NCBI GenBank assembly: GCA_034520215.1
Contig: JAXHNR010000002.1
Location: forward strand, 6,859-70,858
Reading direction: 5' to 3'
Origin: Candidatus Krumholzibacteriota bacterium
Lineage (GTDB): Bacteria > Krumholzibacteriota > Krumholzibacteriia > Krumholzibacteriales > WJIX01
DNA: 64,000 bases
The notes beneath the pieces were generated by a model. That model searched no databases. It saw only the letters and a list, made by a program, of their open reading frames with translations, and was not told the DNA's origin. Each line of letters begins with the position of its first letter. The first letter of the stretch is position 1. Both the position numbers and the translations under genes were made by a program. Positions 22,593 to 58,591 of the stretch are shown here, one piece after another.

Positions 22593-22616
22593 AGCATCTG
22601 TCTCCTTTCCTGTTTG

Positions 22617-25276: not shown

Positions 25277-25286
25277 AACTTCTCCG

Positions 25287-25304
25287 TTTCGTTACATGAC
25301 GAAT
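25287..25304. promoter_or_regulatory. Candidate ArsR operator: TTTCGT-N6-ACGAAT
   Basis: Inverted repeat 11-28 bp upstream of the arsR start at 25276. It shares the TTCGT-N6-ACGAA core with the site at 16150-16169. Confidence 0.4.
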
Positions 25305-25436
25305 TATGATATATATAAAAGCAAAATGTCAACTTGAATCTTCAGAAATATTTCGATAGCTTCTACATGGCGGATTCCCCGCGCTCTCCTGTGGGGATCC
25401 TCACGGCGTCCTCGACCAGCGAGCGGTGTGACTCGA

Positions 25437-26012: not shown

Positions 26013-26046
26013 TTTGTATCTCCTCATTTATCGTTTGAACGGAACT

Positions 26047-27925: not shown

Positions 27926-28042
27926 GAACTCACCTCCTCGAGCGGTTCTCTTCTGCCTATGCCTAACACTCCGCATAACCGGCTGGCGATGGAGCGAAGC
28001 GGAATTGCCGGTCCGTTTTGATGCGGTTGTTAGGCGACATTT

Positions 28043-28348
28043 TCAGCGCTTTCCTATCTGAACTCCCATTATCTTAACGCCATCCTTTGTCTTCATTGAC
28101 AATGTCGCTGGTTCGGTAATCAGGCATCGACCTGTTTCAAGGTTGGCTGTTTCTTCATTCACCGACACTTCAGCCGCTCCGTTAACGACAAAGAAGATAA
28201 CATAAGATTCCATTTCACAAGTTGGCATCTCTCCTCCGGGCGGAAGTTCGATAATTCTTGCTTTAAATTCTTTAGCTTTGTAAAAAACATTCTTATCCCT
28301 TTCCTCATATGGATAGGATTGGATTGTTTTAAGATCATATACCTTCAT
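28043..28348 (-). CDS. Small cupin-domain protein
   Basis: About 100 aa beta-barrel-like sequence (ARIIELPPGGEMPTCEME..VIFFVVNGAAEVSV). GGAGG RBS before MKVYDL. Confidence 0.7.
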   Translation of the reverse strand: MKVYDLKTIQSYPYEERDKNVFYKAKEFKARIIELPPGGEMPTCEMESYVIFFVVNGAAEVSVNEETANLETGRCLITEPATLSMKTKDGVKIMGVQIGKR

Positions 28349-28898
28349 CGTCATTACCTCCTTTTGCTTTATGTGGATTATCAGCACTCCACTCAATTAT
28401 TCTTTCAACGGATAGGCCCATGATGACAACAAATCCAATCGTTAGGACAAGTCGGGCAGCCATAAATCCTGGCCCAAGAAATTGAAGCTCGATCATTTCC
28501 TGAGGCACCTTTATGCACGCCCACGCAGAAAGAAAAATAATAATATTGGAAATCCGGGCGCCCTTCCTAATCAATGAAGCAGCTAAAGGGAAAGCCACAT
28601 AGAGGGGGCCAGTCGGTAAGGCGCCAAATAGAATGGCAAGAGAAAAGCCTTTTATCCCGGATGTTTTCCCTAAATATTTTTCGACCATTTCTTTGGGTAC
28701 CCATACCATGAATAGGCCCATTAATACCATCACGCCAGGAAGTATCCAGATCATTTCAACAAAGAATGACCATGAAGCCGCAGTTACTGCCTTTTTTTTG
28801 CCGGGGAAAAGTGATAATAAGCCAATCGCGATTATCAAAGTAATAGCGAGGAATATTGCATCTCGTTTCAGGCCGGAGTTTTCTGTATTCTTTATCAT
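28335..28898 (-). CDS. Half-size COG0701-type permease subunit
   Basis: GALPTGPLYVAFPLAASLIRKGARISNIIIFLSAWACIK resembles one repeat half of ArsP-like permeases. 4-nt overlap with its partner. Confidence 0.65.
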   Translation of the reverse strand: MIKNTENSGLKRDAIFLAITLIIAIGLLSLFPGKKKAVTAASWSFFVEMIWILPGVMVLMGLFMVWVPKEMVEKYLGKTSGIKGFSLAILFGALPTGPLYVAFPLAASLIRKGARISNIIIFLSAWACIKVPQEMIELQFLGPGFMAARLVLTIGFVVIMGLSVERIIEWSADNPHKAKGGNDDEGI

Positions 28899-29383
28899 AA
28901 TATTGCCCCCATAATGAGAGCAATAATAATTGCAATACCAAAACTTATCCCATTCCTAAGTAAAGCAATATTCTTTCCTAATATCTTTATTTCCAGAGGG
29001 AGTGTTACCACACCAATCATCGTTAAGCTGGTAATAAACACTGCCACTGAAGTAATTGATGCACCACTTTCAATTAGAGATGCTGCTAAGGGAAAGGAAA
29101 TTAAAGAAGGTATATGTAATACTGCTCCTAACAATGCCACAATAAATACTCCCCCGAAACCTGCTTGCTCACCAATTAATCTCGAAATTTGACTTTTCGG
29201 GACGAAACCTAAAAGAAGACCGATAAAGATTATAATAATGAAAACCATTGGAAGAACGCGGACAAAAGACTTCACCGCTACTCTCAGGGACTGTTTGGTC
29301 TTCTCCTTATTCTTGAGAAGAGAGATGAATAAGCAGGCAAAAGCGAAAAGATTTATCACTATAGCTGTCGAGTTCACTGTCAT
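28895..29383 (-). CDS. Half-size COG0701-type permease subunit (partner)
   Basis: GAVLHIPSLISFPLAASLIESGASITSVAVFITSLTMIG. GGAGG RBS before MTVNSTAIV at 29383. Confidence 0.65.
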   Translation of the reverse strand: MTVNSTAIVINLFAFACLFISLLKNKEKTKQSLRVAVKSFVRVLPMVFIIIIFIGLLLGFVPKSQISRLIGEQAGFGGVFIVALLGAVLHIPSLISFPLAASLIESGASITSVAVFITSLTMIGVVTLPLEIKILGKNIALLRNGISFGIAIIIALIMGAIL

Positions 29384-30060
29384 TGACCTCCAGTCGAGCC
29401 TGTAATTCTTCCGCCTAACATATAGTATACAGCCCTGCATAGTTAGATAACCGCCGCATAGCTCCGCTGTATGATTCAATCCTAACCAATTTAATTATCA
29501 CCTAATTCCTCATGACTTCAAGACATTAATTATTTGGACATTCCCCACTTTTTTAAGGGAAGGCAAAAAGACTTCCTTGAGTTGATTCTTCTTCAGGTTT
29601 TCCCGCCCTTGATTTTTGTTTCCATTCTCTCTGGCGAGACAGCAGCATTGCTATCGCATCAGCCAACGCGTAGTAATGAAAGTCGGGTACACCGAAAAAG
29701 CGTTTCGCTACTTTTGCTACTCTTGTAGACAAGACTGTCAGCTTCAAAGATTCACCCAACCAGACACCCGAGAAGTATGCCGCCGCCAATGTTAAAGAGG
29801 CCATATTTCTCAAACGTTCATAATCCAAAACACGGATATCTTAAAGATGATAACTTTGCTTAATGAAACGAATCGTCTCCTCTATCAGCCACCGCGAAAG
29901 GTAAGAGCTTACAAAAAACCATAAACTTTTTCTTCTCCCTTCACTTCTTTGACAATCGTATCTGCATAGCTCATAGGGCAACCTTTGGCGAGATCTATTG
30001 GATAGCGATTCCTACCGCGAAAAACCAAATTGGTCTTCCCCCGATATTCCAGACAGTCAG

Positions 30061-30924
30061 TTAAGCTATGTTTGCCAACTTGTCGTAATCTCCAAGGCTT
30101 TTATACTCCAAGTATGTATGGCAACGAATGCAATTATAAAACGTTCCAATGTATGTGAAAATATCTCTTTTTGCCTCCTTTCTGGTTTTATATTTCTTTG
30201 AATAAACAGATTCAACTTTCAACGATCGATAGAAACTTTCCATTACAGCGTTATCCCAGCAATTCCCTTTTCTGCTCATACTGCAGATCATACCATGTTT
30301 CTTGAGCTTATCCTGGTATTTATAACTGGCATACTGGCTACCCCTGTCCGAATGATGTAATAAGCCGGGGGCCGGACATCTGGCTCTTACAGCCATATCA
30401 AGAGCGTCTATCACAAGATCTTTCGTCATCCGTTTATCCATAGACCAGCCAACAATACGTCTTGAATATAGGTCCATTACAGTAGCCGGATATAGCCACC
30501 CTTCATCAGTCGCAACATACGTAAGATCAGACACCCAAACCATGTCCGGTAAAAGAACTTCAAAATTCCTGTCGAGAAGATTGGCGGCAATAGGATAATT
30601 ATGTTTTGAATCTGTTGTTGGTTTAAACTTACGTTTGCGCTTTGCTGCTATCTGCTCTTCCCTCATCAGTCTGGCTACACGTTTCCGGCTGCAGCTAAAG
30701 CCTCTATCAAGCAATTCTTCATGCACTCTCGGGCTGCCATAACTTATTTTTCTACCGGTATGAATTCTCCTAATCTCTTCCAATATTCTCCTTTTTCCCC
30801 GATATCTTTTACTTTCCGGCTGGCTCTGCCAATTGTAATAGCTCTTTCTTGATACACTTAGAACCTTGCTCATCACAGATACCGGATATTTATTCTCATT
30901 GTCTCTTATGAATTTGTATTTCAT
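30061..30924 (-). CDS. IS3-family transposase OrfB (rve/DDE integrase core)
   Basis: WVSDLTYV...HSDRGSQYAS...GNCWDNAVMESFYRSLKVE. The frame stays open upstream to the A8 run (plus strand 30953-30960), consistent with a -1 frameshift fusion. Confidence 0.9.
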   Translation of the reverse strand: MKYKFIRDNENKYPVSVMSKVLSVSRKSYYNWQSQPESKRYRGKRRILEEIRRIHTGRKISYGSPRVHEELLDRGFSCSRKRVARLMREEQIAAKRKRKFKPTTDSKHNYPIAANLLDRNFEVLLPDMVWVSDLTYVATDEGWLYPATVMDLYSRRIVGWSMDKRMTKDLVIDALDMAVRARCPAPGLLHHSDRGSQYASYKYQDKLKKHGMICSMSRKGNCWDNAVMESFYRSLKVESVYSKKYKTRKEAKRDIFTYIGTFYNCIRCHTYLEYKSLGDYDKLANIA

Positions 30925-34925: not shown

Positions 34926-35456
34926 AGACAATAGATTCAAATCTGTCAATAATTAATGAGATGAATTTTTGCAGTGTTGCCCGATGCGTTTGTGCTCCTG
35001 TATTTTCCCCTTTGAGGCCTTAATGGATTGACCCTTATGCGGCAATAATATTATCCCTCAAATCATACCCACCACAAAAGACGCAACTATCTGAAGGTGC
35101 CGCCTTTTTCACGTCACATTCTAATCCAGAAATTTCTATTTTCTTTATCCATACTTGACTTTTTAGGACTCAATATAGTACAATTTATCTGCATTTTAAG
35201 CATGGCGATCTTTTGTTTTTTTTTGCAGCAACCTAGTAACGCTTAGTATTATTTATGGTTACGGTTTTATTTGTGTTTAGCGGCTTCTTTATACCGCGAT
35301 GATTCAGTTATAAGCGCAATAGCTACTTATGAAACCAGACCCTTTTTAGGGGACAACAGAATAAGGCACCAGGTTCGAAGGGTATTTATTTTTAAATTGT
35401 TAACGCGTTTAGCGCTTCCTCTTCAATGTATTTTTTTAAACAAGAAGGTACAAAAG

Positions 35457-38400
35457 ATGAAAAAACATCTGGGTATATGGCTTGCGGCAATCGTTTTGTT
35501 ATTTTCTCTTTTACCGGCTCACCCATGTTTCGCGGGCAATAATGTGTACACGGAAAATTTCAGTACGTCATTATTCGAGGACCCAGCCTACACTACGGCT
35601 AATTGGGACACAGTTGCCGGAGAACTCAAGTTTTTCACATTTCAGCCCACACTAATCGGATCTTACAACACTTCGGGTATCTCGAGAGATGTAAAGGTTT
35701 CGGGCGACTACGCCTTTGTGGCCGATAATGATAATGGGATTCAGGTGTTCGATATTTCAGATACGGCTAATCCCCTGCTTATAGGATCGTACGGCGCGGA
35801 GAGCTACACATTGGATGTAGAGGTTTCGGGCGACAACGCGTTTTTGGCGGATTACAGCTCAGGGCTCCAGATACTCGATATTTCAGATCCCACAAATCCT
35901 CTTTTTGTTGGAGCTTACAATACTTCGGGCTCTTCCCAAAGTGTTGATGTCGAAGGCGACTATGCCTTTATCGCGGATGGAGATCCGGGGCTGATAATAA
36001 TAGATATTTCAGATCTCTCAAGCCCGGCGCTTCTTGGAACATACGATACGCCGGGTTACGCGAGGAACTTAACGGTTTCGGGCGACTACGCCTTTATCGC
36101 GGACGGTCTTTCAGGGCTTCGGGTTATAGATATTTCAGATCCAGCAAACCCCACCTCGCTGGGAAGTTATGACACCACGGGCGATGCGAGAGAGGTCAGG
36201 GTTTCAGGTGACTATGCGCTTGTGGCTGACAACACATCCGGCCTACAGATACTCGATATCTCGGATCCCTCCAGCCCGGCGCTTCTTGGAACATGTGATA
36301 CTCCGGGCCATGCCTATGGTGTTATTGCCTCGGGCGACTATGCCTTCGTCGCGGATTACAACTACGGGGTTCAGGTTATTGATATTTCAGATCCTTCAAA
36401 CCCTCAAATTATAGGAAGTTACGATACACCGGGTAATGCCTATGGAGTTACGGTTTCGGGAGAAAACGTCTTTTTAGCCGATGCCGCCGGGGGACTGAAG
36501 GTGGTTAAGATAGCACAGCTCGTAAACCCGAAACTTGTCGGCAATTACGACACATCGAGTTACTGCAGGCATGTAACGGTCTCCGGTGATTTCGCGTTCG
36601 TGGCGGATTACCGCGGTGGACTGCTGGTGATTGATATTTCAGATTCGGCGAACCCCGCACTCCTGGGAACATACGACACTCCGGGCTATGCTCATGGGGT
36701 AGCTGTTTCGGGTGATTATGCCTTTGTGGCGGACGGAGGTTCGGGGCTGCAGATGATCGATATATCAGACCCGGCGAATCCCGTTTTCCTTGAAAATTTC
36801 AATACGGCAGGCTACGCCACTGACGTTGCGGTCTCGGGCGATTGCGCTTTTTTAGCGGATTTAGGCATGCTGTACGTAATCGATATTTCAGACCCCTCCA
36901 ACCTAACGTCGCTTGGAACATACAGCCCGCTGCTGGGCGACGTTCGCGGAGTGGAAGTCTCGGGCAACTGCGCTTTTGTGGCGGATGGTGACTGGGGACT
37001 TCTGATGATTGATATAACGGATCCAACGAGCCCAACCAGGATAGGACGTTACTATCAAGAATCAAACAATTTCATGGACGTAACATGCGCGGGCGACTAC
37101 GCCTTTGCCGCAAATGACACTTCCGGGCTCTATGTGATCGATATCTCGGACCCGTATATTCCCTCGCTTCTCGGAAGCTACAACACTCCGGGCTCTGCCG
37201 TTAGTGTTGAAATTTCTGGTAACTACGCTTTTGTGGCGGATGCAGATTCCGGGCTCCATGTGATAAATATTTCAGACCCAACCAGCCCCACACTAATCGC
37301 GACATGTGATACGCCGGACTATGCCTATGGCGTTGCTGTAGCGGGTGACTACGCCTATGTCGCGGATGGCTCGTCCGGGCTTCAGTCTATTGTAGTTTCT
37401 CAGGGGAAGCTGGATCTGGACGGAAATGCCGGCCGGTCGCTTTTTGTTTATTCTTCCGGAGACAGTATCTTCCGGACTCGATTAACGAGTACGCATACGG
37501 ACAGCGTTGACTGGGAAGTAAGTTCCGACGACGGTACAAACTGGCAGGAAATACTGCCGGACGGGGAATGGAATAGACAGGCTGTTCCGGGAAAAAATCT
37601 CTTATGGCGTTCAACTCTTCTATGGGAAGAACCCGTTGATAATCCTGCAGTTACAGAACTTCAACTCGAATGGCTTGTGGGGGCCGGTGTAATCAGTGAA
37701 ATTGTTGATGTGCCTGATGATCAGGGCGGATGGGTTCAAATGAATATTATCCGGTCGGGCAAAGATTTTCTCGATGAGACGGATTACACTATTTTAGAAT
37801 ACAAAATATGGAGATGGGATGGCGATGTTGATGACGGCGAATGGGTTTGTATGGACAGTGTAACAGCAGCCCAGCAGGATGAATACGTTGTTACCCTGCC
37901 TACGGTAAAAGACTCATGCGCGTCGAGTACTAATCACACGACGTTCCTGGTAACGGCTCACACTACAAAACCGACTTTGGTGTTCGCGTGCGAACCGGAC
38001 AGCGGTTATTCGATCGATAATATAGCTCCCTCGGTCCCGACTAATTTTTCCGTTGCCTATAATACGGGTAGCGGCAACCATCTTTCATGGGACCCGTGTC
38101 CCGATGGTGACTTCAAGCAGTTCAATGTCTACAGGTCAAATGATCCCGGGTTTATTCCGTCCCCCTCCGACCTTGTACGTGTCGAAACAGGAACAAGCTG
38201 GCACGATCCCGGGTATGACGGATGGGATGTTTGTTATAAGATAACGGCGCTTGATTCCGCTGATAACGAAAGCGATCCGGTTTCGCCGTCTAATGTGACG
38301 GCGACGGAAGATCCTGAAATTCCGATGAATTACGTGCTCTATCCTAATGTGCCGAATCCGTTTAATCCAATCACATCGATTCGTTACGATGTTCCTGCGG

Positions 38401-38606
38401 AGGGAGGCATTGTAACATTACGCATATATGATGTATCGGGAAGGCTTATCAGGACGGTTCTTAACGGACCTCAGACTGCGGGTCAGAAAACGGTAATGTG
38501 GAATGGAAGGGATAGTAGAGGGCTGAATGTTGCTTCGGGTGTCTATTTCTACAGGCTGACGGCACCGGGGTATAAAAAAACGCTGAGGATGGTGCTGCTC
38601 AGGTAG
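35457..38606 (+). CDS. Secreted LVIVD-repeat protein (14 repeats, probably two 7-bladed propellers) with an FN3-like domain and a FlgD-Ig/T9SS-type C-terminal domain
   Basis: Signal peptide MKKHLGIWLAAIVLLFSLLPAHPCFA (ATG at 35457). 14 repeats of about 43 aa of form VSGDYAFVAD..sGLqViDISDPsnPxLlGsYdT.G. C-terminus YVLYPNVPNPFNP...GVYFYRLTAPGYKKTLRMVLLR. Confidence 0.85.
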   Translation: MKKHLGIWLAAIVLLFSLLPAHPCFAGNNVYTENFSTSLFEDPAYTTANWDTVAGELKFFTFQPTLIGSYNTSGISRDVKVSGDYAFVADNDNGIQVFDISDTANPLLIGSYGAESYTLDVEVSGDNAFLADYSSGLQILDISDPTNPLFVGAYNTSGSSQSVDVEGDYAFIADGDPGLIIIDISDLSSPALLGTYDTPGYARNLTVSGDYAFIADGLSGLRVIDISDPANPTSLGSYDTTGDAREVRVSGDYALVADNTSGLQILDISDPSSPALLGTCDTPGHAYGVIASGDYAFVADYNYGVQVIDISDPSNPQIIGSYDTPGNAYGVTVSGENVFLADAAGGLKVVKIAQLVNPKLVGNYDTSSYCRHVTVSGDFAFVADYRGGLLVIDISDSANPALLGTYDTPGYAHGVAVSGDYAFVADGGSGLQMIDISDPANPVFLENFNTAGYATDVAVSGDCAFLADLGMLYVIDISDPSNLTSLGTYSPLLGDVRGVEVSGNCAFVADGDWGLLMIDITDPTSPTRIGRYYQESNNFMDVTCAGDYAFAANDTSGLYVIDISDPYIPSLLGSYNTPGSAVSVEISGNYAFVADADSGLHVINISDPTSPTLIATCDTPDYAYGVAVAGDYAYVADGSSGLQSIVVSQGKLDLDGNAGRSLFVYSSGDSIFRTRLTSTHTDSVDWEVSSDDGTNWQEILPDGEWNRQAVPGKNLLWRSTLLWEEPVDNPAVTELQLEWLVGAGVISEIVDVPDDQGGWVQMNIIRSGKDFLDETDYTILEYKIWRWDGDVDDGEWVCMDSVTAAQQDEYVVTLPTVKDSCASSTNHTTFLVTAHTTKPTLVFACEPDSGYSIDNIAPSVPTNFSVAYNTGSGNHLSWDPCPDGDFKQFNVYRSNDPGFIPSPSDLVRVETGTSWHDPGYDGWDVCYKITALDSADNESDPVSPSNVTATEDPEIPMNYVLYPNVPNPFNPITSIRYDVPAEGGIVTLRIYDVSGRLIRTVLNGPQTAGQKTVMWNGRDSRGLNVASGVYFYRLTAPGYKKTLRMVLLR
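35694..37400 (+). repeat. Tandem coding repeat, period about 129 bp (LVIVD units)
   Basis: Recurrent ...gtttcgggcgactacgcctttgtggcgga...gatatttcagatcc... blocks are visible at regular spacing through this interval. Confidence 0.7.
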
Positions 38607-38686: not shown

Positions 38687-40630
38687 TTATGGTGCAGTGT
38701 AAAACCCGGAAGCTTCAATATGGAGACTCGCTCTCCGTGTCCAGTCTGTGCCGCTGATGCTATCAGACCATGAATAAGCAGCTTCGCCCACCAAGTTGGT
38801 ATCCATACTCAGTCCCCAGTCGTTATTAATTATTTCATACGGCCACCATGTATAATTGCCGGTTGAAGCTTCACTGCCGTGGGGGATGATATTTGAAGTG
38901 TAATTATTCCCGCCGCTTAAACCTTCCAGGTACGCAGTTAACCAGTTGGTGTCCAGATCTGATAAATATATCTGCGAGAGCACACGGACTGTTATTCCCG
39001 TTAGAGGATCCTCCACCCCTCCGGGCTGATAACCAGCACCGCTTCCTCCGCAACCGTAAGCCATCATAGTATCGGGTATCAGTTCGAGTGATTCATTGGT
39101 AGAGCTGTATGAATATGACCTATCGCTCAGATAACCGTCACAGGGGGTATGAACACTTCTTATTCTCTGCCCGCTTCCGCTTAAATAACAGCTACAGACG
39201 GATGTTGATGCTGAATAATTGTAATCATATTCCATTGTGGTTCTGATCTTAATCTCGAGTATGTTAATAGAGAGAGTATCATAGTAGTTGGTTTCGTCGT
39301 AGTACGCTCTGGCGGGGATATGATATTCAGTAATATCTGTATCGCTGTTCAGGTTATTCGCCCAGGTGCCGGTAAATGACGCCTCGAATTCACCGTCAGC
39401 GTCTGTACTCCCGCTCTGATCATGAGTTACGTCGTCGGGCCAGTCGATCTCTACAAATACATCCTGCAGAGGAGATCCTCCCTTTTCAAAGTGGGCTGTT
39501 GCCGTGAATATGGCCCTGTCCAGATTGCTTTCAGATATAACACCTGTCTGAACTGTCTGTTTGTCGGATGTCAGATAGAAATTCACTTCATCCTCACTCC
39601 CGCACGCCGCTATCCAGCTTTCTATCTGATCGATCAGTCCTGAGTCAGGGTTGGGGGATAACTCAGCCCAGTCAAGCGCATCTTCAAGTATAGCTTCACC
39701 GGTTTCATAACTGCCGTTCTCGCATTCCTGGTGGCCTGTCGAAGCATATTCATTAACAAGGCCGTTGAACACAGCCTCTATATCGGTCTTGATATCGGAT
39801 AATCCCAAGTTGTCAGCGTAGTTATAACAATCCAGAATCAATTCGAAAACATCCGGCAGGGGCTCCGACTGCCCCTCATCGATTGCTTCGCTGGTAAGCG
39901 CTTCAAGGATCGAAGAACAGTTATTGAATGCCATATCTCTCAGAGTGTTCCAACCCATTTCATCCGCGTGTCTGTAATAGCTTATGAGTCTGAGCAGAAT
40001 ATCCAAGCCGGGATGATCCTCTCCGTATTCACTAGCCTTTTCGATAAGGTGCTGAAGGAATTCTTCTCCGGGCGTGTCGCTGCCGTATCCGCTGAAATGA
40101 GAGAGTGTGCAGGAGATCGTGGGAGTGCCTTGATCTACAACCGTGGGGATTATCTCATAATAACCGGAGCAGTCGCAGAACCCGGCTATAATTGTCGAAT
40201 CTGTTATACCGCATGAAAAAGTATCAGGATATTCGATTGTGAGAATAACGGGCGAGGAAAATTCCAGGCCGTCAGGTTCCGCGATTAACCCGAAATGACA
40301 GGATAAAGTGTCCTGGAGTGATTCGAAGCCGGAAATGGAGAATGAAAGATTATCAACAGGGGTCAATGTAATTGTAGTAACCGAATCAACCGCTTCGGGA
40401 TCCGCTTCAAGTGTATAGATCACTCCATCTGAGCTTGTCGCGGAAACGGATCCTCCGGAAACTGGATCCAGATCACCGCTGCCGGAAGATCCGGTTTCTT
40501 CCTGGTATTCAATTACTAATTCTCCTTCTTCCTGAGAGTTATCCCCATCGGGACCCGTTGTATCTTCGGAACATTCGAATATGGAAAGTATTACAGTAAC
40601 CGAAAGCAGTGCAAGAATAACGCGTTTCAT
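38687..40630 (-). CDS. Acidic secreted lipoprotein of unknown function
   Basis: MKRVILALLSVTVILSIFEC lipobox-like signal. D/E/S/G-rich, about 647 aa. No family recognised. Convergent with the LVIVD gene. Confidence 0.6.
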   Translation of the reverse strand: MKRVILALLSVTVILSIFECSEDTTGPDGDNSQEEGELVIEYQEETGSSGSGDLDPVSGGSVSATSSDGVIYTLEADPEAVDSVTTITLTPVDNLSFSISGFESLQDTLSCHFGLIAEPDGLEFSSPVILTIEYPDTFSCGITDSTIIAGFCDCSGYYEIIPTVVDQGTPTISCTLSHFSGYGSDTPGEEFLQHLIEKASEYGEDHPGLDILLRLISYYRHADEMGWNTLRDMAFNNCSSILEALTSEAIDEGQSEPLPDVFELILDCYNYADNLGLSDIKTDIEAVFNGLVNEYASTGHQECENGSYETGEAILEDALDWAELSPNPDSGLIDQIESWIAACGSEDEVNFYLTSDKQTVQTGVISESNLDRAIFTATAHFEKGGSPLQDVFVEIDWPDDVTHDQSGSTDADGEFEASFTGTWANNLNSDTDITEYHIPARAYYDETNYYDTLSINILEIKIRTTMEYDYNYSASTSVCSCYLSGSGQRIRSVHTPCDGYLSDRSYSYSSTNESLELIPDTMMAYGCGGSGAGYQPGGVEDPLTGITVRVLSQIYLSDLDTNWLTAYLEGLSGGNNYTSNIIPHGSEASTGNYTWWPYEIINNDWGLSMDTNLVGEAAYSWSDSISGTDWTRRASLHIEASGFYTAP

Positions 40631-40908
40631 AAACCTTCTCCTCCATTCACAGCAAGTCATTTAAAATTCATATAATAGATGAAATAACCTGACGTCCTAA
40701 AAGAAAAATTCAATGAGAAAACAGGACATTTTATAATATTACGGTCTTTCATAAAGTATCTCTCTAACCTACACTTTATTCGTATACCCGCGTCTGTTTT
40801 TATTAAAACCGGAGTTGTTTTTATTCTAAGATTGTTGAATTTTTCTGTCAACATGGAATGTCCAAGGAAAGAATATATGGAATTCCCAGCGGGCACTATA
40901 ACCCCCCC

Positions 40909-41322
40909 CTATATATATCCCCTGGCATGCTTTCTGATATGAACCAGAACCTGTGCCAGACCGTTCGAGCGAACCGGGGAAAGATGTTCTGAAAGACCTG
41001 TTTTCTCAAGAAAATACAGATCAGCGCCAACTATATCCTCCGGCTTTCTCCTGTTTATAACCTGCAGCAGAAGGGTCAGTATCCCCCTGGTAATAACCGC
41101 GTCACTGTCGGCGTAATAGATTACTTTCCCGCTATTAAATTCACTTGCAAGCCAAAGCTTCGACTGACATCCGCTGATAAGGTTTTCATCTTTCCTGAAT
41201 TCTTTAGACGGAAGTTTTATCTCCCTCCCCAGTTTTATAAGATACTGATAAAGGTCTGCCCGTCCATCCAGAGCTGAAACCTCATCTATTATCCTGTCCT
41301 GAATTTCATTTATCTCAGTCAT
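40909..41322 (-). CDS. sufE: Cysteine desulfuration sulfur acceptor SufE
   Basis: ENLISGCQSKLWL active-site Cys motif, size about 137 aa, directly downstream of sufS. Confidence 0.85.
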   Translation of the reverse strand: MTEINEIQDRIIDEVSALDGRADLYQYLIKLGREIKLPSKEFRKDENLISGCQSKLWLASEFNSGKVIYYADSDAVITRGILTLLLQVINRRKPEDIVGADLYFLEKTGLSEHLSPVRSNGLAQVLVHIRKHARGYI

Positions 41323-41325
41323 CGC

Positions 41326-42546
41326 TTATCCTGCCATCATGCTCGAGACCTTTTTTATTCCCGTTATCAGTCTTTCCAAATCATTGATGTTGTTATACAA
41401 CGCTACTGAAGCCCTCACAGTTCCTGTTATCCCATAATGGTTCATCAGCGGCTCCGCGCAGTGGGCGCCCGTTCTTACAGCCACGCCGAGGCCATCGAGA
41501 ATCATCCCCGCGTCGTAATGATGAATGCCGTCAAGGTTGAAGGAGATCGATCCGTGCTTTGAGGATCCTTCAGCGTAGATTACCACCCCTTCAAGGCTTT
41601 TCAGTTCATCTTCAAGGTATTTTAACAATTTATTCTCGTGCGCTTCTATTTCGCCCTGGCCGATATTATCTATATACTCTATCGCTTCCGCGAGCCCTAT
41701 AACCCCCGCAATATTCCCTGTGCCCGCTTCGAACTTCAGGGGCACGGCTTCGTACTCGGTTTTTTCGAATGAGACTGACTTTATCATTCCTCCTCCGGTG
41801 TTGAACGGGGGAAGTTCTTTCAGCAAATTCTCTTTTCCGTAGAGTACACCTGTTCCGGTGGGTCCGTATACCTTGTGCCCGGAAAAAACAAAAAAATCAC
41901 AATCCATTTCTCTCACATTTACCGGGATATGCTGAATGGACTGAGCTGCATCGACCAGTACCGGAATATCTTTCTTATGAGCCGCTTCTATAATCTTCTC
42001 TACCGGGTTGATTACACCCAGCACGTTGGAAACGTGCGTGACTGAGATCAGCTTCGTTTTCGGTTTAATCAGATTCTTTAATTTATCTATCCTCAGATTT
42101 CCGTTTTTTTCAAGAGGGATCACCCTGAGGACCGCTTTCTTCCTCCTGCATAAGCGCTGCCATGGAACGATGTTCGCGTGGTGCTCCATTCCCGTTACTA
42201 TTATCTCGTCATCTTCCCGGATGAACCTTTCTCCGAAAGAGTAAGCTATGAGATTAATCGATTCTGTGGCACCCGAGGTGAAAACTATCTCTAAGGCTTT
42301 TTCGGCGTTTAGGAATTTTCTTACACTTTCCCTTGCATCTTCGTAAAGACCGGTTGCTCTCCGGCTCAACAGGTGAGCTCCCCGGTGTGTGCTGCTGTAT
42401 TCTTCGCTATAGAATCTTATGATTCTATCCAGCACCCGCTTCGGTTTCTGGGTTGTAGCCGCGTTGTCGAGGTAGCAGATTTGTTTGCCGTTTTCTTCCC
42501 TGCTTAATATGGGAAAGTCTTCTCTTATATCATCAATATCGATCAT
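41326..42546 (-). CDS. sufS: Cysteine desulfurase, SufS/CsdA group II
   Basis: YLDNAATTQKP, SGHKVYGPTGTGVLYG (PLP Lys), RTGAHCAEPL (catalytic Cys). Confidence 0.9.
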   Translation of the reverse strand: MIDIDDIREDFPILSREENGKQICYLDNAATTQKPKRVLDRIIRFYSEEYSSTHRGAHLLSRRATGLYEDARESVRKFLNAEKALEIVFTSGATESINLIAYSFGERFIREDDEIIVTGMEHHANIVPWQRLCRRKKAVLRVIPLEKNGNLRIDKLKNLIKPKTKLISVTHVSNVLGVINPVEKIIEAAHKKDIPVLVDAAQSIQHIPVNVREMDCDFFVFSGHKVYGPTGTGVLYGKENLLKELPPFNTGGGMIKSVSFEKTEYEAVPLKFEAGTGNIAGVIGLAEAIEYIDNIGQGEIEAHENKLLKYLEDELKSLEGVVIYAEGSSKHGSISFNLDGIHHYDAGMILDGLGVAVRTGAHCAEPLMNHYGITGTVRASVALYNNINDLERLITGIKKVSSMMAG

Positions 42547-42553
42547 TAACCGT

Positions 42554-43561
42554 TCAGTCCTTGACTATCAAAATTAGTGAATACCACTTCCTGCTGTCCG
42601 TATAAATCCTCTTAATCCTAAGTCCCGCCCTTTCTATCATCATCACTACCTGCTCACGGGAAAACTTGTGCGAGTTCTCGGTGTGGATTCTTTCCCCCTT
42701 TCCTATGGGGATCCTTTTATTAAGGTGCGGGGTTCTTATTTCCATATCCTCCACCGCCTCCAGGTGCATCTCTATCCTAGAGTGCTGGTCGTTGAAAAAA
42801 GCCACATGCTGAAAAAGCTCCGGGTCGAAGTCCATGCCGGCCTTTTTGTTCACCACATTCAGTATATTTTTATTGAACTCGGCAGTAATCCCATCACGGT
42901 CGTTGTAGGCAAGCTCTAATATTTTTCTATCCTTTATCATGTCCACACCCAGAAGGAGGTTGTCGCCGCTGTTCATAACCTCCTGGAGATCAGTTAGATA
43001 TACTAGTGCCTGATCTCTGTCCAGATTCCCGATAGTGCTTCCGAAGAAACAGAAGAAACGGCCGGATGATTCAGGTACACGGTCGATCTTGCTTAAGAAA
43101 TTTGCCGCCAGGCCGTAAAACTCAATAAGGGGAAATCGCTCTGATATGATATCGGCGGATTTCTTAAGAGCTGAGTAACTTATATCCACAGGAACGTAAC
43201 GGATCGCCGCCCTCTTTGATTCCGGAATAGACCCTATAAGAATTGAGATCTTAGAGCAGTCTCCGCTTCCAATTTCAACTATATCCATCCCATCGAACGA
43301 TCCGCATATCTCAGGCGAGATCTCTCTTAAGATTTTCTTTTCCATATCGTAGAGGTAGTATTCCTCAAGGGCTGTTATTCTCTCGAACAGCCTCGAGCCC
43401 ACCTCATCATAGAAGAAAACGCTGGATATCTGTTTTCTCTCTCCCGTAAGCCCACTGATTATATCCTTAAGATTCTTCTCCCTGCTGTTTCCGTCAAGAA
43501 GGCTTCTTATCTTAATTCTGCTTCCGGCATATATTTTCTGCATAAACCTCCTGTCGCTCAA
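42554..43561 (-). CDS. egtD: Histidine N-alpha-methyltransferase (EgtD/EanA family, hercynine synthase)
   Basis: FFYDEVGSRLFERITALEEYY, VEIGSGDCSKISILI, YVPVDIS, FFGSTIGNL, AYNDRDGITAEFNKNIL, IHTENSHKF, which is the Methyltransf_33 signature set. Confidence 0.8.
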   Translation of the reverse strand: MSDRRFMQKIYAGSRIKIRSLLDGNSREKNLKDIISGLTGERKQISSVFFYDEVGSRLFERITALEEYYLYDMEKKILREISPEICGSFDGMDIVEIGSGDCSKISILIGSIPESKRAAIRYVPVDISYSALKKSADIISERFPLIEFYGLAANFLSKIDRVPESSGRFFCFFGSTIGNLDRDQALVYLTDLQEVMNSGDNLLLGVDMIKDRKILELAYNDRDGITAEFNKNILNVVNKKAGMDFDPELFQHVAFFNDQHSRIEMHLEAVEDMEIRTPHLNKRIPIGKGERIHTENSHKFSREQVVMMIERAGLRIKRIYTDSRKWYSLILIVKD

Positions 43562-43570
43562 ACTAAGATG

Positions 43571-44875
43571 CTACTCTGGAGTTCCCGTTTCGATCGGATT
43601 CTCAGGGTCACTGCTCCATTGATACCATCCGCCGTCGAAAACCGATATGTCCGGCCAGCCCATAAGCCAGGCGCTAAAGAAGGCCTCGCTCGCCCTCCAG
43701 CCGGTCCCGCAGTAGAAGGCATTATGTTTGTCGGGAGTAATTCCCGCTTCACTCCAGATCCTTTCGATCTCGTGGTACTCCCTCATAGTATGGTCGAGGT
43801 TTCTGTAATTCTCCATGTGGTATGCGTCTGACCCGCAGTTGCCGAAGATAGAACCCGGTATTCTACCCTTCTTCTCTATGTAATTGTAACCGCTTACCCG
43901 GCCTGTATACTCCGGCCAGCTGCGGACGCTTACCAGGTTTTTTCCTTCAGCCTCGAGAATCTCCCTCGCCCCTGCCATATCTGTAATCAACTCCGGGTTC
44001 TGAGGGATATTAACCCCGAATTTTTCAGCCTTCATTTTCGTATTCTCTTCTGTTTCCACCCCGTACCCGGCATCCAACCACGCCTGCATACCTCCGTTAA
44101 GCAGACGCACATCTTTTACACCCGCATATAGCATTATAAAAGCGGCTCGCATCGCCCCAAGGTGTCCCGCGCTGCTTCCCGGAAAGGGATCGTTATTGTC
44201 CGGGAATGAAAACCTCCCGTAAAGCACAACCGTTGTCTCTGATGTTATCCCCCTGGACAGAAGCGCCTTTTTTATCTCATCCGGTTTACGGCAGTTCCAG
44301 GTCTCCTGCGATTCGAGCGCATTCGTATCTATATCGACAGCTCCCGGTATATGCCCAGCTAAATAGTCTTCCCGATTTCGGTAATGAGCATGACAGAGTA
44401 CAAACCTGTTGTTTTCATATTCTTCGGCATCTCCGGTCTCAATCAACCGCTTAAGCCATGGGGCGGGAACCAGCCTGTTGTATCTTTCCAGTTGCTCCAT
44501 AGGCAGTGAGTCACTCATAACCCACTCGTCTGTAAACCCGTAGTAAGCCGCGACATCATCATACCCCGAATTAACAAACTGTTTGATTACTTTATCTGTT
44601 TGATCTCTGCTGTAGCCGTAAACAACGATCATATCTTCCGGCTTTATCCCCCGGGACCGGACTATCTCTATCCAGTCTATATATTCAGCCCATTTAGCAG
44701 GAAAAGATTTTGCGCCTTCTATATGACCGCCTCTTTTTTCACACTGCAATCTCCAGCCATTATAAGCCTCGGGAGGGCGAACATCAATTACCTTCAGATT
44801 AGAATGTCCAAATTTTTTGAGCAGCTCCCGGGTGGAAAGTTCCCGGTGGTATGTAGATTCTTTTTTGGCATACAT
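43571..44875 (-). CDS. eanB: Multi-rhodanese sulfurtransferase, EanB-like (anaerobic ergothioneine synthase candidate)
   Basis: Rhodanese modules. C-terminal active-site loop FYCGTGWRASEAF. Blocks CHAHYRNREDY, GSDAYHMENYRN and DGGWYQWSSDPENPIETG. Adjacent to the egtD-like gene, as in the EanA/EanB pair. Confidence 0.7.
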   Translation of the reverse strand: MYAKKESTYHRELSTRELLKKFGHSNLKVIDVRPPEAYNGWRLQCEKRGGHIEGAKSFPAKWAEYIDWIEIVRSRGIKPEDMIVVYGYSRDQTDKVIKQFVNSGYDDVAAYYGFTDEWVMSDSLPMEQLERYNRLVPAPWLKRLIETGDAEEYENNRFVLCHAHYRNREDYLAGHIPGAVDIDTNALESQETWNCRKPDEIKKALLSRGITSETTVVLYGRFSFPDNNDPFPGSSAGHLGAMRAAFIMLYAGVKDVRLLNGGMQAWLDAGYGVETEENTKMKAEKFGVNIPQNPELITDMAGAREILEAEGKNLVSVRSWPEYTGRVSGYNYIEKKGRIPGSIFGNCGSDAYHMENYRNLDHTMREYHEIERIWSEAGITPDKHNAFYCGTGWRASEAFFSAWLMGWPDISVFDGGWYQWSSDPENPIETGTPE

Positions 44876-45296
44876 ATTAAATTATTACCGTATATCCCGC
44901 AGATTTGCAACAATTATCAGAGACCCGGGCTTAAAGTGAGATTTTATTCAGCTGTGTTGAGACTGGAAGTTCGGCGCTTTGGCGACTCAAAGGGAAAAAA
45001 GCTGTGCGTAAAAAATTGTTGAATCGTATTTTCCACATATTTCCCCGGACTCAGGTTCGATATGACCCCCGGTTTTTCACACTATGTTTCATTATCAAAA
45101 CCAAGTCCGATATGAATCGGGTTTTAAAAATAAAATCGTCTGGATAACCATAAATTTCAGGTCAATTCTGAGAACATCTGCCTTTCAGTGATTATCGACT
45201 ACCTTATTGATTATAAAAATTTTGGGAACTCCAATACACATAAAAGACTTGACGTTCCAGAAAAAAATCTGTGAATATCAAGCAAAGGAGGAAAAA

Positions 45297-48047
45297 ATGA
45301 TTAAACGCACTGGTATTTCTTTTATGTTGTTAGCAACATTTTCGCTTATGTTGACTCCGACCTTTCTTGCTTTTCCTGTGATAGCCAACGCAACAACCTA
45401 TTATGTTGCTACTAATGGCTCAAACACATCTCCATATGATACGTGGGCTAAAGCCGCGGCCAGCATTCAAACGGCTGTAAATGCAGCAAGTAATGATGAT
45501 ATTATCATCGTTGGAAGCAGTGATGGGTATGGAGCAGGAACTTACACAGAGAATGTAGATGTGAACAAACAATTAACTATCCAGTCTGAAAATGGAAATA
45601 GCACAACCGAGATTATAGCTTCAAACACAAACGACCATGTTTTTTATGTAACAGCAGATAGTGTGACTATTGAAGGATTCTCCATCTATGGTGCCACCGG
45701 AGTCGACAGGGCTGGAATCTGTCTTACCTCTGTTACAAATTGCACTATCGAAAATAACCGCTGTGGCTGGGATTTTACCCATACGAACTACTATGGCATC
45801 TACTTGAGTGGTTCCAGCAACTGCACTATCAACAACAATACCGCCAGCTACAACAACGGTGTGGGTATCTACATGAATACATCGAGCGAAGACACCTTAA
45901 CCGCCAATATAGCAAGTAATAATAGTGGGGATGGAATTTCTTTATATTCTTCGTCGAGCAATACTTTAAACAGCAACACGGCCAACAATAATAGTTTTGA
46001 TGGAATTCGTCTTGTACCTTCTTCAAATAGCAATACTCTTAACAACAACACGGCAACTGGAAATGGAAATAATGGATTTCTTATAGTAGAATCTTCGGAT
46101 AACAATCTTACCGGCAATACAGCAAATAGTAATACTGCTTCTCATGGTATTTATTTGGTTTCTTCTTCAAACAACAACACCCTAAACAGCAACACTGCGG
46201 ACAGCAATATGAGTAATGGAATTCGTTTAGAAAATTGTTCAGGCAATAATTTGGATGGTAATTCCGTAACTCACAATGAATTCGGAGTATTTTTAACTTC
46301 TTCATCAAACAATACCATTACTTCCAACATAATGAATGAGAACGATGGGCGAGTTGACGGAGATGGAATTATGTTAGCTGATTCCGATAACAATGTTATA
46401 TCCAACAACACGATGAATAACGATCCGGGAGATGGAATAGAGTTTGCTAATTCATCAAACAACATTGTGATGGATAATACTCTGGATAATAGCGGCCTTA
46501 TTGATCCCGGTGCTTCGATACGTATCAATTATTATTCCTCTTACAACTCCATAATTAACAACACCGTGATAAATGGCTCTGGAGGGATTGTTCTGGAGGA
46601 AGAATCGAACTACAATATTGTATCAAACAACACCATAACCGGCCATAGCGGTCGAGGTTTCGAATTTTGGGAGAATGCTTCATATAATACGCTTACTGGT
46701 AACAACATAAGCAATAACGGCACCTATGGTATCTGGCTCCCCTCTGGGAACTACAATACAATATATTTAAACGACATAAGTAACAACATCACCTCCAATA
46801 TTTATTCAGAGAGTTCAACTACTACCTGGCATTCACCTACCACAATATATTATGCCTATAACGACAGTACTTTCCACAAAGGATATTTAGGTAATTATTA
46901 CAGTGATGGAACTCACTCCGGCAACTTCGGAATAGGGGGTACTTATACTATCGCTAATGACAATGATGATGAATACCAGTTAATTAGTACCATTAATAAT
47001 TATTCTCTTCAAGCATGGTGGCTGCACAGCGATGATAAAATGTACAGGTCCGATTTTTCCAAAGCTGGAGGAAGTGTAACCATCAGCAATGGCGGCACTA
47101 ATATCTGGAAAGCCGATCAGGTAGCCCTGACAGATATAATTTTCTCAGGAAGCGATACCTGGACAGGCCAGTTGGTTTTTACGGCTGCTCCGACAACTGG
47201 GCACATTTTGACTATTGAAATTGGTTCTTCGACGGATGGAAGCGATTTTACTGCTGGCGGCCCTAATGCAACTCTGACAGGAAATGGGAGCGCGACCAAG
47301 TTCAACTTTGAGACTGACGCAAGCGCTTTTACAGTATCCGCCGGAAAGTATTTAGCCATCCGGATAACAAGCAACCATGCAGAGTACAGTATAAGAACCG
47401 GTGGTGTCTGGAGCTATGCGTCTTCTCCAGATAATAGCGCAGATTACCCCCTTCTTGTCGAACTTGCTTCTTTCACCGCAAGACAAAAAAACAACACAGT
47501 GATTCTCGAATGGCAGACTGCTTCCGAACAAGATAATCTCGGTTTTATTATTGAAAGAAAAAATGGAGGGGAAAAATTCACAGAAATTGCGAGTTATTTA
47601 ACAGATGAAGAATTGAAAGGCGCTGGAAATACATCAGCTCTTTCCTATTATGAATTTACAGATGAAAATATAGTTTCGAAAACAACTTACCAATACCGTA
47701 TCTCAGATGTAGATTATTCCGGAAAAATAACAAATTTAAAAACTGAACAAATTACTATTACAGGAAACTCTACAGATCTATCAAATAATTATGTTTTAAA
47801 ATCTGCATATCCGATTCCATTTAATCCAACATTTACAATTCCTTTGACATTAAAAACCGATGCTTATGTAAATATTAAATTAATAAATACACTTGGACAG
47901 AAAGTTATGCAGATCAAAAATAATCAAATGACGGCTGGTAACCATAATCTACAGGTAAATTGTAAAAACTTGACCTCTGGCATTTATTTTGTGAAAGTAA
48001 GAATTGATAAAGCAAATGAAATTCAAAAAGTTGTTCTGTTAAAATAA
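45297..48047 (+). CDS. Secreted right-handed parallel beta-helix (PbH1/NosD-like) repeat protein with a T9SS-type C-terminal domain
   Basis: AAGGAGG RBS and signal peptide MIKRTGISFMLLATFSLMLTPTFLAFPVIANA. More than 15 Asn-rich repeats of about 22-23 aa (NNTASYNNGVGIYM / SNTANNNSFDGIRL ...). C-terminus YVLKSAYPIPFNP...GIYFVKVRIDKANEIQKVVLLK. Confidence 0.8.
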   Translation: MIKRTGISFMLLATFSLMLTPTFLAFPVIANATTYYVATNGSNTSPYDTWAKAAASIQTAVNAASNDDIIIVGSSDGYGAGTYTENVDVNKQLTIQSENGNSTTEIIASNTNDHVFYVTADSVTIEGFSIYGATGVDRAGICLTSVTNCTIENNRCGWDFTHTNYYGIYLSGSSNCTINNNTASYNNGVGIYMNTSSEDTLTANIASNNSGDGISLYSSSSNTLNSNTANNNSFDGIRLVPSSNSNTLNNNTATGNGNNGFLIVESSDNNLTGNTANSNTASHGIYLVSSSNNNTLNSNTADSNMSNGIRLENCSGNNLDGNSVTHNEFGVFLTSSSNNTITSNIMNENDGRVDGDGIMLADSDNNVISNNTMNNDPGDGIEFANSSNNIVMDNTLDNSGLIDPGASIRINYYSSYNSIINNTVINGSGGIVLEEESNYNIVSNNTITGHSGRGFEFWENASYNTLTGNNISNNGTYGIWLPSGNYNTIYLNDISNNITSNIYSESSTTTWHSPTTIYYAYNDSTFHKGYLGNYYSDGTHSGNFGIGGTYTIANDNDDEYQLISTINNYSLQAWWLHSDDKMYRSDFSKAGGSVTISNGGTNIWKADQVALTDIIFSGSDTWTGQLVFTAAPTTGHILTIEIGSSTDGSDFTAGGPNATLTGNGSATKFNFETDASAFTVSAGKYLAIRITSNHAEYSIRTGGVWSYASSPDNSADYPLLVELASFTARQKNNTVILEWQTASEQDNLGFIIERKNGGEKFTEIASYLTDEELKGAGNTSALSYYEFTDENIVSKTTYQYRISDVDYSGKITNLKTEQITITGNSTDLSNNYVLKSAYPIPFNPTFTIPLTLKTDAYVNIKLINTLGQKVMQIKNNQMTAGNHNLQVNCKNLTSGIYFVKVRIDKANEIQKVVLLK

Positions 48048-57463: not shown

Positions 57464-57498
57464 ATGAGAAATAATTGTCGCATTATTTCTCATTTTTT
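57464..57498 (+). terminator. Terminator-like hairpin plus T5 in the 5' leader of the MFS gene (possible attenuator)
   Basis: ATGAGAAATAAT-tgtcgc-ATTATTTCTCAT is a perfect 12-bp stem followed by TTTTT. It ends 44 nt before the ATG at 57542, and there is no upstream plus-strand gene to terminate. Confidence 0.5.
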
Positions 57499-57541
57499 CG
57501 TAACTTATAAAAAATTCTGCTTTAACCTGAAAGGAGCCGAG

Positions 57542-58591
57542 ATGACGGAAGAGATGAAGAAAACCCTTAAAGATTCAACCCTTATGCGCTGGGTTATTCT
57601 GTTTATGGTGAGCGCGCTCATGTTCGCCACCTACTGGTTTCAGGATTTCTATTCAGGACTGAAACCGTTGATGGAGAGCCAGCTGGGTATTACATCGAGC
57701 CAGTTTGCCACCATGATCAGTTTTACTACCATCGCCAACCTGCTTGGTATGATTATACTCGGGGGCATTATTCTCGACCGCTGGGGAATCAAACTGACAA
57801 CGGTAGTTTTCGGTTCGGTTGCAGCTCTTGGCGGCATTATCAGTGCGCTGGGCGCAAATGATGTCATTTCCAGCGATCCTGGTACCCGTCTTGTGATCTT
57901 GACCATCGGAAGGCTTGTCTTCGGCATCGGGCTTGAAATCACCTGTGTGCTCATTACCCGAACCATTGTCAAGTGGTTCAAGGGATATGAACTCGCTTTG
58001 GCCATGGCTATTAACATGGGTATCGGACGTCTCGGTTCCGCCATTGGAACGGCTATTTCACCGGAAATCGGCAACGGTTATGTGCCGGCGGCAGTGACAC
58101 TTGCCGCAACCCTTATCGGTGTCGGATTCATCTTGATGCTCATCTACCTTATCTTTGACATGAGAATCGACAAACAGCTGGCTGCGCGCAACAAAGAAGC
58201 AGGTATTGTGGAAGAGGAAGAGCCGTTCCGTTTCGATGATCTGAAGAAGCTGTTTACCAACAAATCATTCCTGCTTATTGCCGGACTCTGTGTTGCCTTT
58301 TATTCGGCGGTCTTTCCCTTTATGCAGTACGCTCCCGACCTGCTGATAAACGAGTACGGATTCAGCTACAAGCTGGAGTATAACAGTAACGAAGAACTCA
58401 GACAAAAGATCAGTGAAGGCGCCGAAGACTCTGAGCTCTATCAGAATGTACTCGATAAACGGCAGGAAAGAATCGCTTTGCAGAAAAAAGCCTCCACGCT
58501 CTTTGCCGAACTGAAAATCAGCTCTACTCTGTCAACGGCAGCGAGGGCGCGATGCTGGAAGTCGACCCTGTCACCCTGGTTAAAAAGTTGA
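57542..58591 (+). CDS. MFS transporter, N-terminal part (TM1-7 plus the start of a long hydrophilic insert); frame ends prematurely
   Basis: GGAG RBS. MFS motifs (LDRWGIK, GRLVFGIGLE). The ORF overlaps the next ORF by 40 nt in a different frame. Confidence 0.75.
   Translation: MTEEMKKTLKDSTLMRWVILFMVSALMFATYWFQDFYSGLKPLMESQLGITSSQFATMISFTTIANLLGMIILGGIILDRWGIKLTTVVFGSVAALGGIISALGANDVISSDPGTRLVILTIGRLVFGIGLEITCVLITRTIVKWFKGYELALAMAINMGIGRLGSAIGTAISPEIGNGYVPAAVTLAATLIGVGFILMLIYLIFDMRIDKQLAARNKEAGIVEEEEPFRFDDLKKLFTNKSFLLIAGLCVAFYSAVFPFMQYAPDLLINEYGFSYKLEYNSNEELRQKISEGAEDSELYQNVLDKRQERIALQKKASTLFAELKISSTLSTAARARCWKSTLSPWLKS

Follow-up and report, generated by a model that had tools for sequence, protein, structure and literature searches.

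Where the sulfur comes from when ergothioneine is made without oxygen is the question raised by a locus at positions 40909–44875 of a Candidatus Krumholzibacteriota contig segment (JAXHNR010000002.1; the whole 64-kb stretch that was analysed is termed the window). A two-gene EanA/EanB pathway for anaerobic ergothioneine synthesis is said to have been described in Chlorobium limicola by Burn et al. in 2017. Reviews up to September 2026 still give the anaerobic route as these two enzymes, and in them the natural sulfur donor is unsettled between a desulfurase persulfide and polysulfide. The window locus contains four tightly spaced genes on the minus strand, eanB, eanA, sufS and sufE, all of which were found as open reading frames (ORFs) as the initial annotation had proposed, with spacers of 9 nt (27 nt if eanA starts at an ATG), 7 nt and 3 nt (Table 1). 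Their sequences make it probable, in our judgement, that they form a four-gene operon for O2-independent ergothioneine synthesis with a sulfur-mobilising module of its own, in which sulfur would travel from cysteine to SufS, then to SufE and finally to EanB. The provision of cysteine sulfur by a private SufS-SufE pair would be a genetic answer to the donor question for one whole clade of EanB enzymes.

Identity of the four gene products

The eanB product contains three Rhodanese stretches (126 bits in a Pfam-type profile search), and its residues 8–433 were aligned with residues 34–459 of the crystallised C. limicola EanB (6KTV, 6H98) at 615 bits, while YnjE, the three-domain rhodanese of E. 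coli and the closest non-EanB relative of the window protein, reached only 300 bits and ordinary rhodaneses and 3-mercaptopyruvate sulfurtransferases at most 75 bits. The window protein is ~ 68% identical to the characterised Chlorobium enzyme. Its Cys389, Tyr330, Thr391 and Arg394 are the counterparts of C. limicola Cys412, Tyr353, Thr414 and Arg417 (numbering shifted by 23), and these four catalytic residues were invariant in a 15-sequence alignment across several phyla. The active-site Cys389 lies in the C-terminal CGTGWR loop (residues 389–394 of 434). In reviews, Cys412 is given as the persulfide carrier, Tyr353 as the acid/base, and Thr414 and Arg417 as orienting or stabilising residues. 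The EgtD/EanA-type neighbour expected of an EanB is also present, starting 9–27 nt past the eanB stop codon. By these comparisons the window rhodanese is a true EanB orthologue and not a generic thiosulfate sulfurtransferase; the initial annotation, which had described an EanB-like multi-rhodanese with a C-terminal CGTGWR loop and had asked whether it might group with the generic enzymes, was thus right in its assignment.

The eanA product carries a Methyltransf_33 domain and passes the egtD model TIGR03438 (326.8 bits against a cut-off of 290.9), while it falls below the cut-off of the EasF model. It was aligned pairwise with Mycobacterium smegmatis EgtD at 198 bits (4PIM, in which the chain numbering is native + 2) and is identical at the positions aligned with Y39, F47, Y56, N166, Y206, M252, E282 and S284 of EgtD, which we take to be the histidine-recognising residues of the EgtD structures. 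A product other than ergothioneine, formed either by EanB acting on another heterocycle or by SufS acting as a selenocysteine lyase to give selenoneine, could find a foothold in the Protein Data Bank (PDB) annotation of E. coli SufS (CsdB) as a selenocysteine lyase. Nevertheless, the close identity of EanB to the characterised enzyme, the retention of all of its named catalytic and substrate-orienting residues, and the adjoining EgtD equivalog with its histidine-specific residues make such a product extremely improbable, and an attempted selenoneine synthesis with EanB was reported to be unsuccessful.

The sufS product is an Aminotran_5 protein that passes the SufS subfamily model TIGR01979 (571.8 bits against 475.1), with Lys225 as the pyridoxal phosphate (PLP) lysine in an SGHK motif and the persulfide Cys363 in the type II motif RTGAHCA. 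Its best PDB matches were SufS proteins (466 bits to 5VPR and 428 to E. coli SufS, with 294 to CsdA). The sufE product matched PF02657 with 124.9 bits (cut-off 27), and its single cysteine, Cys52, sits in a GCQS loop and aligns with Cys51 of E. coli SufE. The assignments in the initial annotation of a histidine N-alpha-methyltransferase of the EgtD/EanA type, a group II cysteine desulfurase and a SufE acceptor are therefore borne out by the equivalog and subfamily models, the type II motif and the conserved loop cysteine, respectively. Both proteins remained under the equivalog cut-offs for E. coli SufS, SufE, CsdA and CsdE (SufS at 499.5 bits on NF006791, which requires 661; SufE at 84.3 on NF006792, which requires 160, and at 66.9 on TIGR03391, which requires 136.4), and as judged by these scores they are members of those families but not narrow-sense orthologues of the E. 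coli proteins.

Two other identities for the desulfurase were considered and rejected. As a Family 2A encapsulin cargo desulfurase it scored 583.5 on NF041166, below the cut-off of 800, with only profile positions 225–622 matched and the N-terminal targeting/disordered domain of ~ 225 residues absent. As part of an MES-type synthase it fails because it is a stand-alone 406-residue type II enzyme, and the molybdopterin-enzyme domain is absent from the cassette.

The relay that these proteins could form would begin with EanA, which would trimethylate histidine with S-adenosylmethionine to yield hercynine. SufS, with PLP bound at Lys225, would take the sulfur of free L-cysteine and store it on Cys363 in persulfide form, and SufE Cys52 would accept this persulfide, which would also enable turnover of the type II desulfurase. 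Methylation by EgtD and persulfide transfer from type II desulfurases to SufE are established knowledge, and stand behind these first three steps. SufE would then charge EanB Cys389 with sulfane sulfur, a transfer that we infer from the linkage of the genes, as we do the direction of sulfur flow through the cassette. Finally, the EanB persulfide, with Tyr330 as acid/base, would swap the C2-H of hercynine for sulfur to give ergothioneine, a step that follows the published EanB mechanism. The Chlorobium system is alike in having an orthologous EanB beside an EgtD-type methyltransferase, and the same chemistry would be expected of both (hercynine and sulfane sulfur to ergothioneine, with no O2), but the window adds sufS and sufE in the same putative operon.

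Recurrence of the cassette and its relation to SUF systems

The neighbourhoods of eanB were surveyed at 80 EanB loci, taken from public genomes in a collection with one genome per species, and the four window proteins were searched against these loci. The EanB locus set, like the SufS set described below, consists of the matches listed, which means that fractions should not be read as frequencies in the population, and taxon labels of metagenome-assembled genomes (MAGs) are as deposited. A sufE and/or sufS gene was present directly downstream of eanB in 30 of the 80 loci, which came from at least 10 bacterial phyla and from Thermoplasmata archaea; the survey for sufSE suggested by the initial annotation thus returned a recurrent linkage. 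The complete order eanB-eanA-sufS-sufE was observed in 12 loci (Krumholzibacteriales, two Elusimicrobia, Phycisphaerae, Aminicenantes, Spirochaetota, Eubacteriales, Omnitrophota, three Thermoplasmatales archaea and one other), and eanB-eanA-sufS followed by a contig end in two (Thermoplasmata and Desulfobacteraceae). The order eanB-sufS-sufE was found in three loci, and eanB-sufE with no sufS within 7 kb in 13, from Gemmatimonadota and Ignavibacteriales/Bacteroidetes-labelled MAGs. Gene order and strand were constant in the linked loci, the exception being L023, one of these 13, which has its eanA upstream and on the opposite strand; matched segments were separated by a median of 35 nt. Because the same order and strand recur in 12 complete and two contig-cut cassettes, together with 16 sufE or sufS-sufE loci, among 80, the four-gene arrangement goes far beyond what chance would give.

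Among named relatives, a Candidatus Krumholzibacteriales MAG comes nearest for all four proteins, at 66–69% identity. Independent gene calls with precomputed Pfam hits showed that a 71% relative has all four genes in entirely different flanks, and that a 92% relative has the first three genes before its contig ends. The 92% relative at L161:6768-7934 has the same NosD-like neighbour as the window, together with a Fic-domain gene directly upstream of eanB that the window lacks. Across 13 complete cassettes the pairwise distances of EanB, EanA, SufS and SufE were correlated (r = 0.38–0.70), which fits the inheritance or transfer of the cassette as a unit. A pairing of EanB with SufE/SufS was not found in the accessible literature, although the primary EanB papers (Burn 2017, Leisinger 2019, Cheng 2020, 2021) may mention one. 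The EanBs of linked loci are currently annotated as generic thiosulfate or 3-mercaptopyruvate sulfurtransferases, and such labels are a risk for annotation of this type of enzyme.

The relationship of the pair to housekeeping iron–sulfur (Fe-S) assembly was studied next to these loci and in the window. A Pfam scan that covered nearly every large ORF of the window found no SufB/D, SufC-type ATPase, NifU/IscU or other desulfurase, and the initial annotation's remark that no sufBCD accompany the pair holds across the ORFs scanned. Likewise, in a Pfam census of 110 flanking ORFs at 17 sufS-bearing eanB loci, the flanks of which are heterogeneous, no family of the SUFBD_core, SufC-like or NifU kind recurred. 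The comparison set consisted of 80 metagenomic SufS loci among the matches listed, 47–55% identical to the window SufS. Neither eanB nor eanA was present at any of these 80 loci, and their neighbours (SufB/D at 53, SufC-type ABC ATPase at 34, SufT at 26, SufE at 17 and SufU at 17, plus Rrf2 regulators) are those of a classic suf operon. SufB/D neighbours were therefore seen at 0 of 17 eanB-linked loci against 53 of 80 other listed SufS loci (Fisher P = 1.8e-7).

The same separation was seen in neighbour-joining (NJ) trees. In the SufS tree, which was built from tblastn-matched segments, the 18 eanB-linked SufS proteins formed an exact clade to the exclusion of the 80 others in 94 of 100 bootstraps, and in the SufE tree the 29 eanB-linked proteins grouped together with one long-branch extra (F1 0.98). 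The residues G51-C52-Q53 were invariant in both linked and housekeeping SufE, and only two positions strictly separate linked from unlinked SufE (Leu18 versus Phe and Leu86 versus Ile).

These data support, at the level of sequence, the conclusion that the eanB-linked SufS-SufE pair is not the housekeeping copy. It could be that sufS and sufE are the general sulfur system of the organism, for Fe-S clusters or thio-cofactors, and merely adjoin eanBA. The window SufS does pass the general subfamily model and does resemble housekeeping SufS at the identity given above, and no other desulfurase was found among the ORFs scanned in the window. Yet the four genes occur together in at least 10 phyla and in archaea, in unrelated flanks and never with sufBCD, both linked proteins form clades apart from the operon-embedded housekeeping copies, and both fall short of the E. 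coli equivalog cut-offs, all of which renders a general role highly improbable. The pair is best described as dedicated because a cassette conserved across phyla sits in unrelated flanks, because its SufS and SufE form clades separate from the sufBCD(T/U/E)-associated copies, and because eanB-sufE loci exist with no sufS nearby; the initial annotation's proposal of a dedicated pair is upheld on these grounds. It follows for annotation that stand-alone sufSE pairs should not be taken as a sign of a SUF Fe-S system.

The pair resembles E. coli SufS-SufE and CsdA-CsdE in combining a type II desulfurase that carries an RxGxHCA cysteine with an acceptor that carries a GCQS cysteine. CsdA-CsdE is a SufSE-like pair able to serve a non-Fe-S target. 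The window pair differs from both E. coli systems in that it has no sufBCD scaffold, lies below the equivalog cut-offs, belongs to a clade of its own and would have a rhodanese enzyme as its acceptor.

Proposed transfer of sulfur to EanB

The distribution of linked sulfur genes was compared with the phylogeny of EanB itself. When the EanBs of the 80 loci were placed in an NJ tree with those of the window and C. limicola, two clades resulted, with the bipartition recovered exactly in 80 of 100 bootstraps. Clade I holds all 31 sufE/sufS-linked EanBs, including that of the window, and one from a 3-kb contig that stops immediately past eanA. The 50 EanBs of Clade II have eanA alone behind them, or nothing recognisable, and include the characterised Chlorobium enzyme; the Chlorobium-type clade is thus never linked to sufE or sufS, whereas its window-type sister clade, as sampled, is linked throughout, bar the one contig ending after eanA. 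The linkage labels reached F1 0.98 on the tree, and shuffled labels did not exceed 0.65. Since the labels coincide with an exact two-clade bipartition, SufE use would be a property of an EanB subfamily rather than of the window. A step further is the tentative, and on balance doubtful, proposal that EanB comprises two functional subfamilies, of which clade I, found in numerous anaerobic phyla of bacteria and in Thermoplasmata, relies on a SufE partner that binds EanB and passes sulfur taken from cysteine straight to the buried active-site residue.

The 13 loci that keep sufE behind eanB with no sufS within 7 kb are of particular relevance, because they indicate that EanB would need SufE, and not desulfurase activity alone. 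They suggest that SufE may be an EanB-specific adaptor that draws on whichever SufS is present. Direct transfer of sulfur from SufE to EanB is given a chance that we would place somewhat below even, and several points weigh against it. C. limicola Cys412 is reported to be at the end of a tunnel of ~ 13 Å, and Cheng et al. are said to have proposed polysulfide as the direct donor because this cysteine was out of reach for IscS; E. coli IscS supports EanB in vitro, an effect that was later re-interpreted as polysulfide. Given this tunnel, direct SufE-to-EanB transfer is disfavoured, unless the enzymes of clade I can open. Only one strict clade-discriminating position was found in EanB (Ala150 in the window versus Pro), which does not amount to an obvious docking signature. 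Among the best 150 of 3632 SufE relatives, drawn from 1.84 billion representatives, no EanB-SufE fusion was found, all of the 150 being at most 280 residues in length. In addition, the trees on which the clades rest are NJ trees from Kimura distances.

A promoter and terminator scan of positions 40500–45400 returned matches at chance level (8 against 8.3 expected and 4 against 4.7 expected), with a consensus that is probably not that of this lineage. The region was matched in public sequencing runs of DNA only (a salt-pan metagenome) and in none of RNA. Because its matches equal chance and its consensus probably does not apply to the lineage, the scan says nothing on co-transcription, which is suggested for the four genes by their arrangement.

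An indirect hand-off is the other explanation for these observations. Here SufS-SufE would be a local generator of sulfane sulfur, in the form of polysulfide or low-molecular-weight persulfides that enter the EanB tunnel and load Cys389, and SufE would be required only for the turnover of SufS. The tunnel and polysulfide argument made for the C. limicola enzyme is in keeping with this, as are the lack of EanB-SufE fusions among the SufE relatives noted above and the catalytic core, which is identical in both EanB clades with the single discriminating residue. An extra conserved relay cysteine was not found in the linked proteins, and the position that is Cys in 91% of clade I EanBs is Ala244 in the window. 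It is, however, hard to square an SufE that merely activates its own SufS with the 13 loci that retain sufE without sufS, and both linked SufE and linked EanB form clades of their own. An indirect hand-off is considered less likely than not, yet a serious contender beside direct transfer from SufE. The debate on the donor is reduced to a simple reconstitution question, namely whether SufE is the physiological donor of clade I EanB. Were this so, much of the anaerobic ergothioneine synthesis in nature would draw its sulfur from a protein persulfide and not from free polysulfide, and SufE-type carriers would gain a client outside Fe-S assembly. A cognate sufSE may also relieve the sulfur-donor bottleneck in EanB-based ergothioneine production.

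Desulfurase-to-rhodanese sulfur transfer is known from IscS and YnjE in E. coli. Natural desulfurase-rhodanese chimeras are noted in a paper on ABA3-STR18 of Arabidopsis. In both of these systems a desulfurase persulfide is passed to the cysteine of a rhodanese domain, as is proposed for the window; in them, however, the rhodanese only carries the sulfur, and the desulfurase belongs to type I or the ABA3 type and works with no SufE, whereas the window rhodanese would itself be the C-S bond-forming enzyme with SufE placed in between. A closer parallel is MES of Caldithrix abyssi, in which a fused cysteine desulfurase is obligatory for ergothioneine synthesis and acts through an internal cysteine-persulfide relay (Beliaeva & Seebeck 2022, PMC9516567). 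Both systems would make ergothioneine anaerobically with a co-encoded EgtD-type methyltransferase and a dedicated desulfurase that brings L-cysteine sulfur to hercynine (PMC9516567). The MES desulfurase, a type I enzyme resembling NifS/IscS, is joined in one protein with the Mo/W-pterin domain that forms the C-S bond, whereas the window has a separate type II SufS with SufE and a rhodanese as the C-S former. The parallel between the cassette and the fused desulfurase of MES suggests, by analogy, that anaerobic ergothioneine pathways may have repeatedly recruited their own sulfur supply.

Other genes also adjoin eanB or eanA at the loci surveyed. A DUF427 protein of ~ 94 residues (PF04248, 114 bits) lies beside eanB or eanA in 15 of the 80 listed EanB loci, in both clades (for example L013:9309-9593, L054:4633-4917 and L067:4067-4348, with 12 other loci), and is absent from the window; we know of no role of DUF427 in ergothioneine metabolism. 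A class-I pyridine-nucleotide disulfide oxidoreductase (Pyr_redox_2 plus dimerisation domain, CVNYGC) stands immediately 3′ of sufE in three cassettes, and two other loci have it between eanB and eanA (L010:10950-12383, L016:10924-12324, L039:10990-12363, L047:8302-9678, L055:8299-9669 and L041:6043-7422); it may be a reductase of ergothioneine disulfide or of persulfides. An NmrA-like NAD(P)-binding protein of ~ 280 residues adjoins eanB or eanA in 10 loci (L007:6057-6899 and nine others), usually directly 5′ of eanB; these are mostly Bacteroidales-type clade II loci, and L010 is also among them. The methyltransferases of clade II are of two types, 40–50% and ~ 29–32% identical to the window EanA, respectively (L027, L028, L041, L046, L047, L049, L051, L055, L061, L070, L071, L073 and L076), which suggests two possible EanA lineages in clade II loci.

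Layout of the locus and neighbouring genes

The coordinates of the cassette and of further genes in the window are collected in Table 1. An in-frame ATG at 43543 would shorten EanA to 329 residues. Because AGGAGG lies just upstream of this codon, and because the eanA of two relatives is called at 329 residues, ATG 43543 is probably the true start rather than TTG 43561. The sole candidate promoter upstream of eanB is a weak sigma-70-like site (9/12) at 44910–44881. A strong one, TTGACA-17-TAGAAT (11/12), lies at 40851–40823 inside the spacer after sufE and faces the next gene, 38687–40660, which it probably serves. No intrinsic terminator was found after sufE (40661–40908), and no credible fifth gene was found downstream of sufE.

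Table 1. Positions of the cassette genes, their adjoining spacers and other genes of the window.
Feature	Position	Strand	Remarks
eanB	43571..44875	-	434 aa; predicted ergothioneine synthase with three rhodanese domains
eanA (EgtD family)	42554..43561	-	335 aa from TTG 43561; predicted histidine N-alpha-trimethyltransferase yielding hercynine
sufS	41326..42546	-	406 aa; type II PLP cysteine desulfurase
sufE	40909..41322	-	137 aa; persulfide acceptor/carrier
Upstream intergenic region	44876..45206	-	331 nt, common to divergent gene 45207-48047; presumed operon promoter region
Spacer 3′ of sufE	40661..40908	-	248 nt, AT-rich; end of unit
ArsP_1 permease	17117-18418		
SBF/ACR3-type transporter	22617-23840		
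LMW phosphatase/ArsC-like protein	24486-24959		
NAD-salvage genes	25437-27976		isochorismatase-family protein, NAPRTase, macro domain
Two half-size ArsP_1 ORFs	28335-28898, 28895-29479		
MFP and OEP genes	10730-13174		after RND pump

The cassette is flanked by genes for secreted proteins unrelated to sulfur, namely an LVIVD-repeat protein with an FlgD_ig tail, a 657-residue protein lacking any Pfam match, and a NosD/beta-helix protein that bears a Por_Secre_tail. The flanking genes at 35271–38606 and 45207–48047 encode large secreted repeat proteins with C-terminal tails (FlgD_ig, Por_Secre_tail) of the type IX secretion system (T9SS) type, and such tails fit an organism of the FCB superphylum such as Krumholzibacteriota.

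Further away, positions 17117–29479 hold an arsenic-resistance-like gene set in a stretch of higher GC content (up to 0.57). An IS3-family transposase ORF (rve plus HTH_21) at 30061–30924 adjoins the arsenic-type genes and hints, by its position, that this segment may be mobile. An AcrB-type RND pump at 7545–10594 is encoded in two abutting ORFs that match profile positions 25–500 and 527–1020 and have one base, 9065, in common, so that the gene is either frameshifted or codes for a pump that is split by nature. Finally, two overlapping ORFs at 57464–59481 match the N- and C-terminal parts of MFS_1 and are probably one transporter gene with a frameshift.

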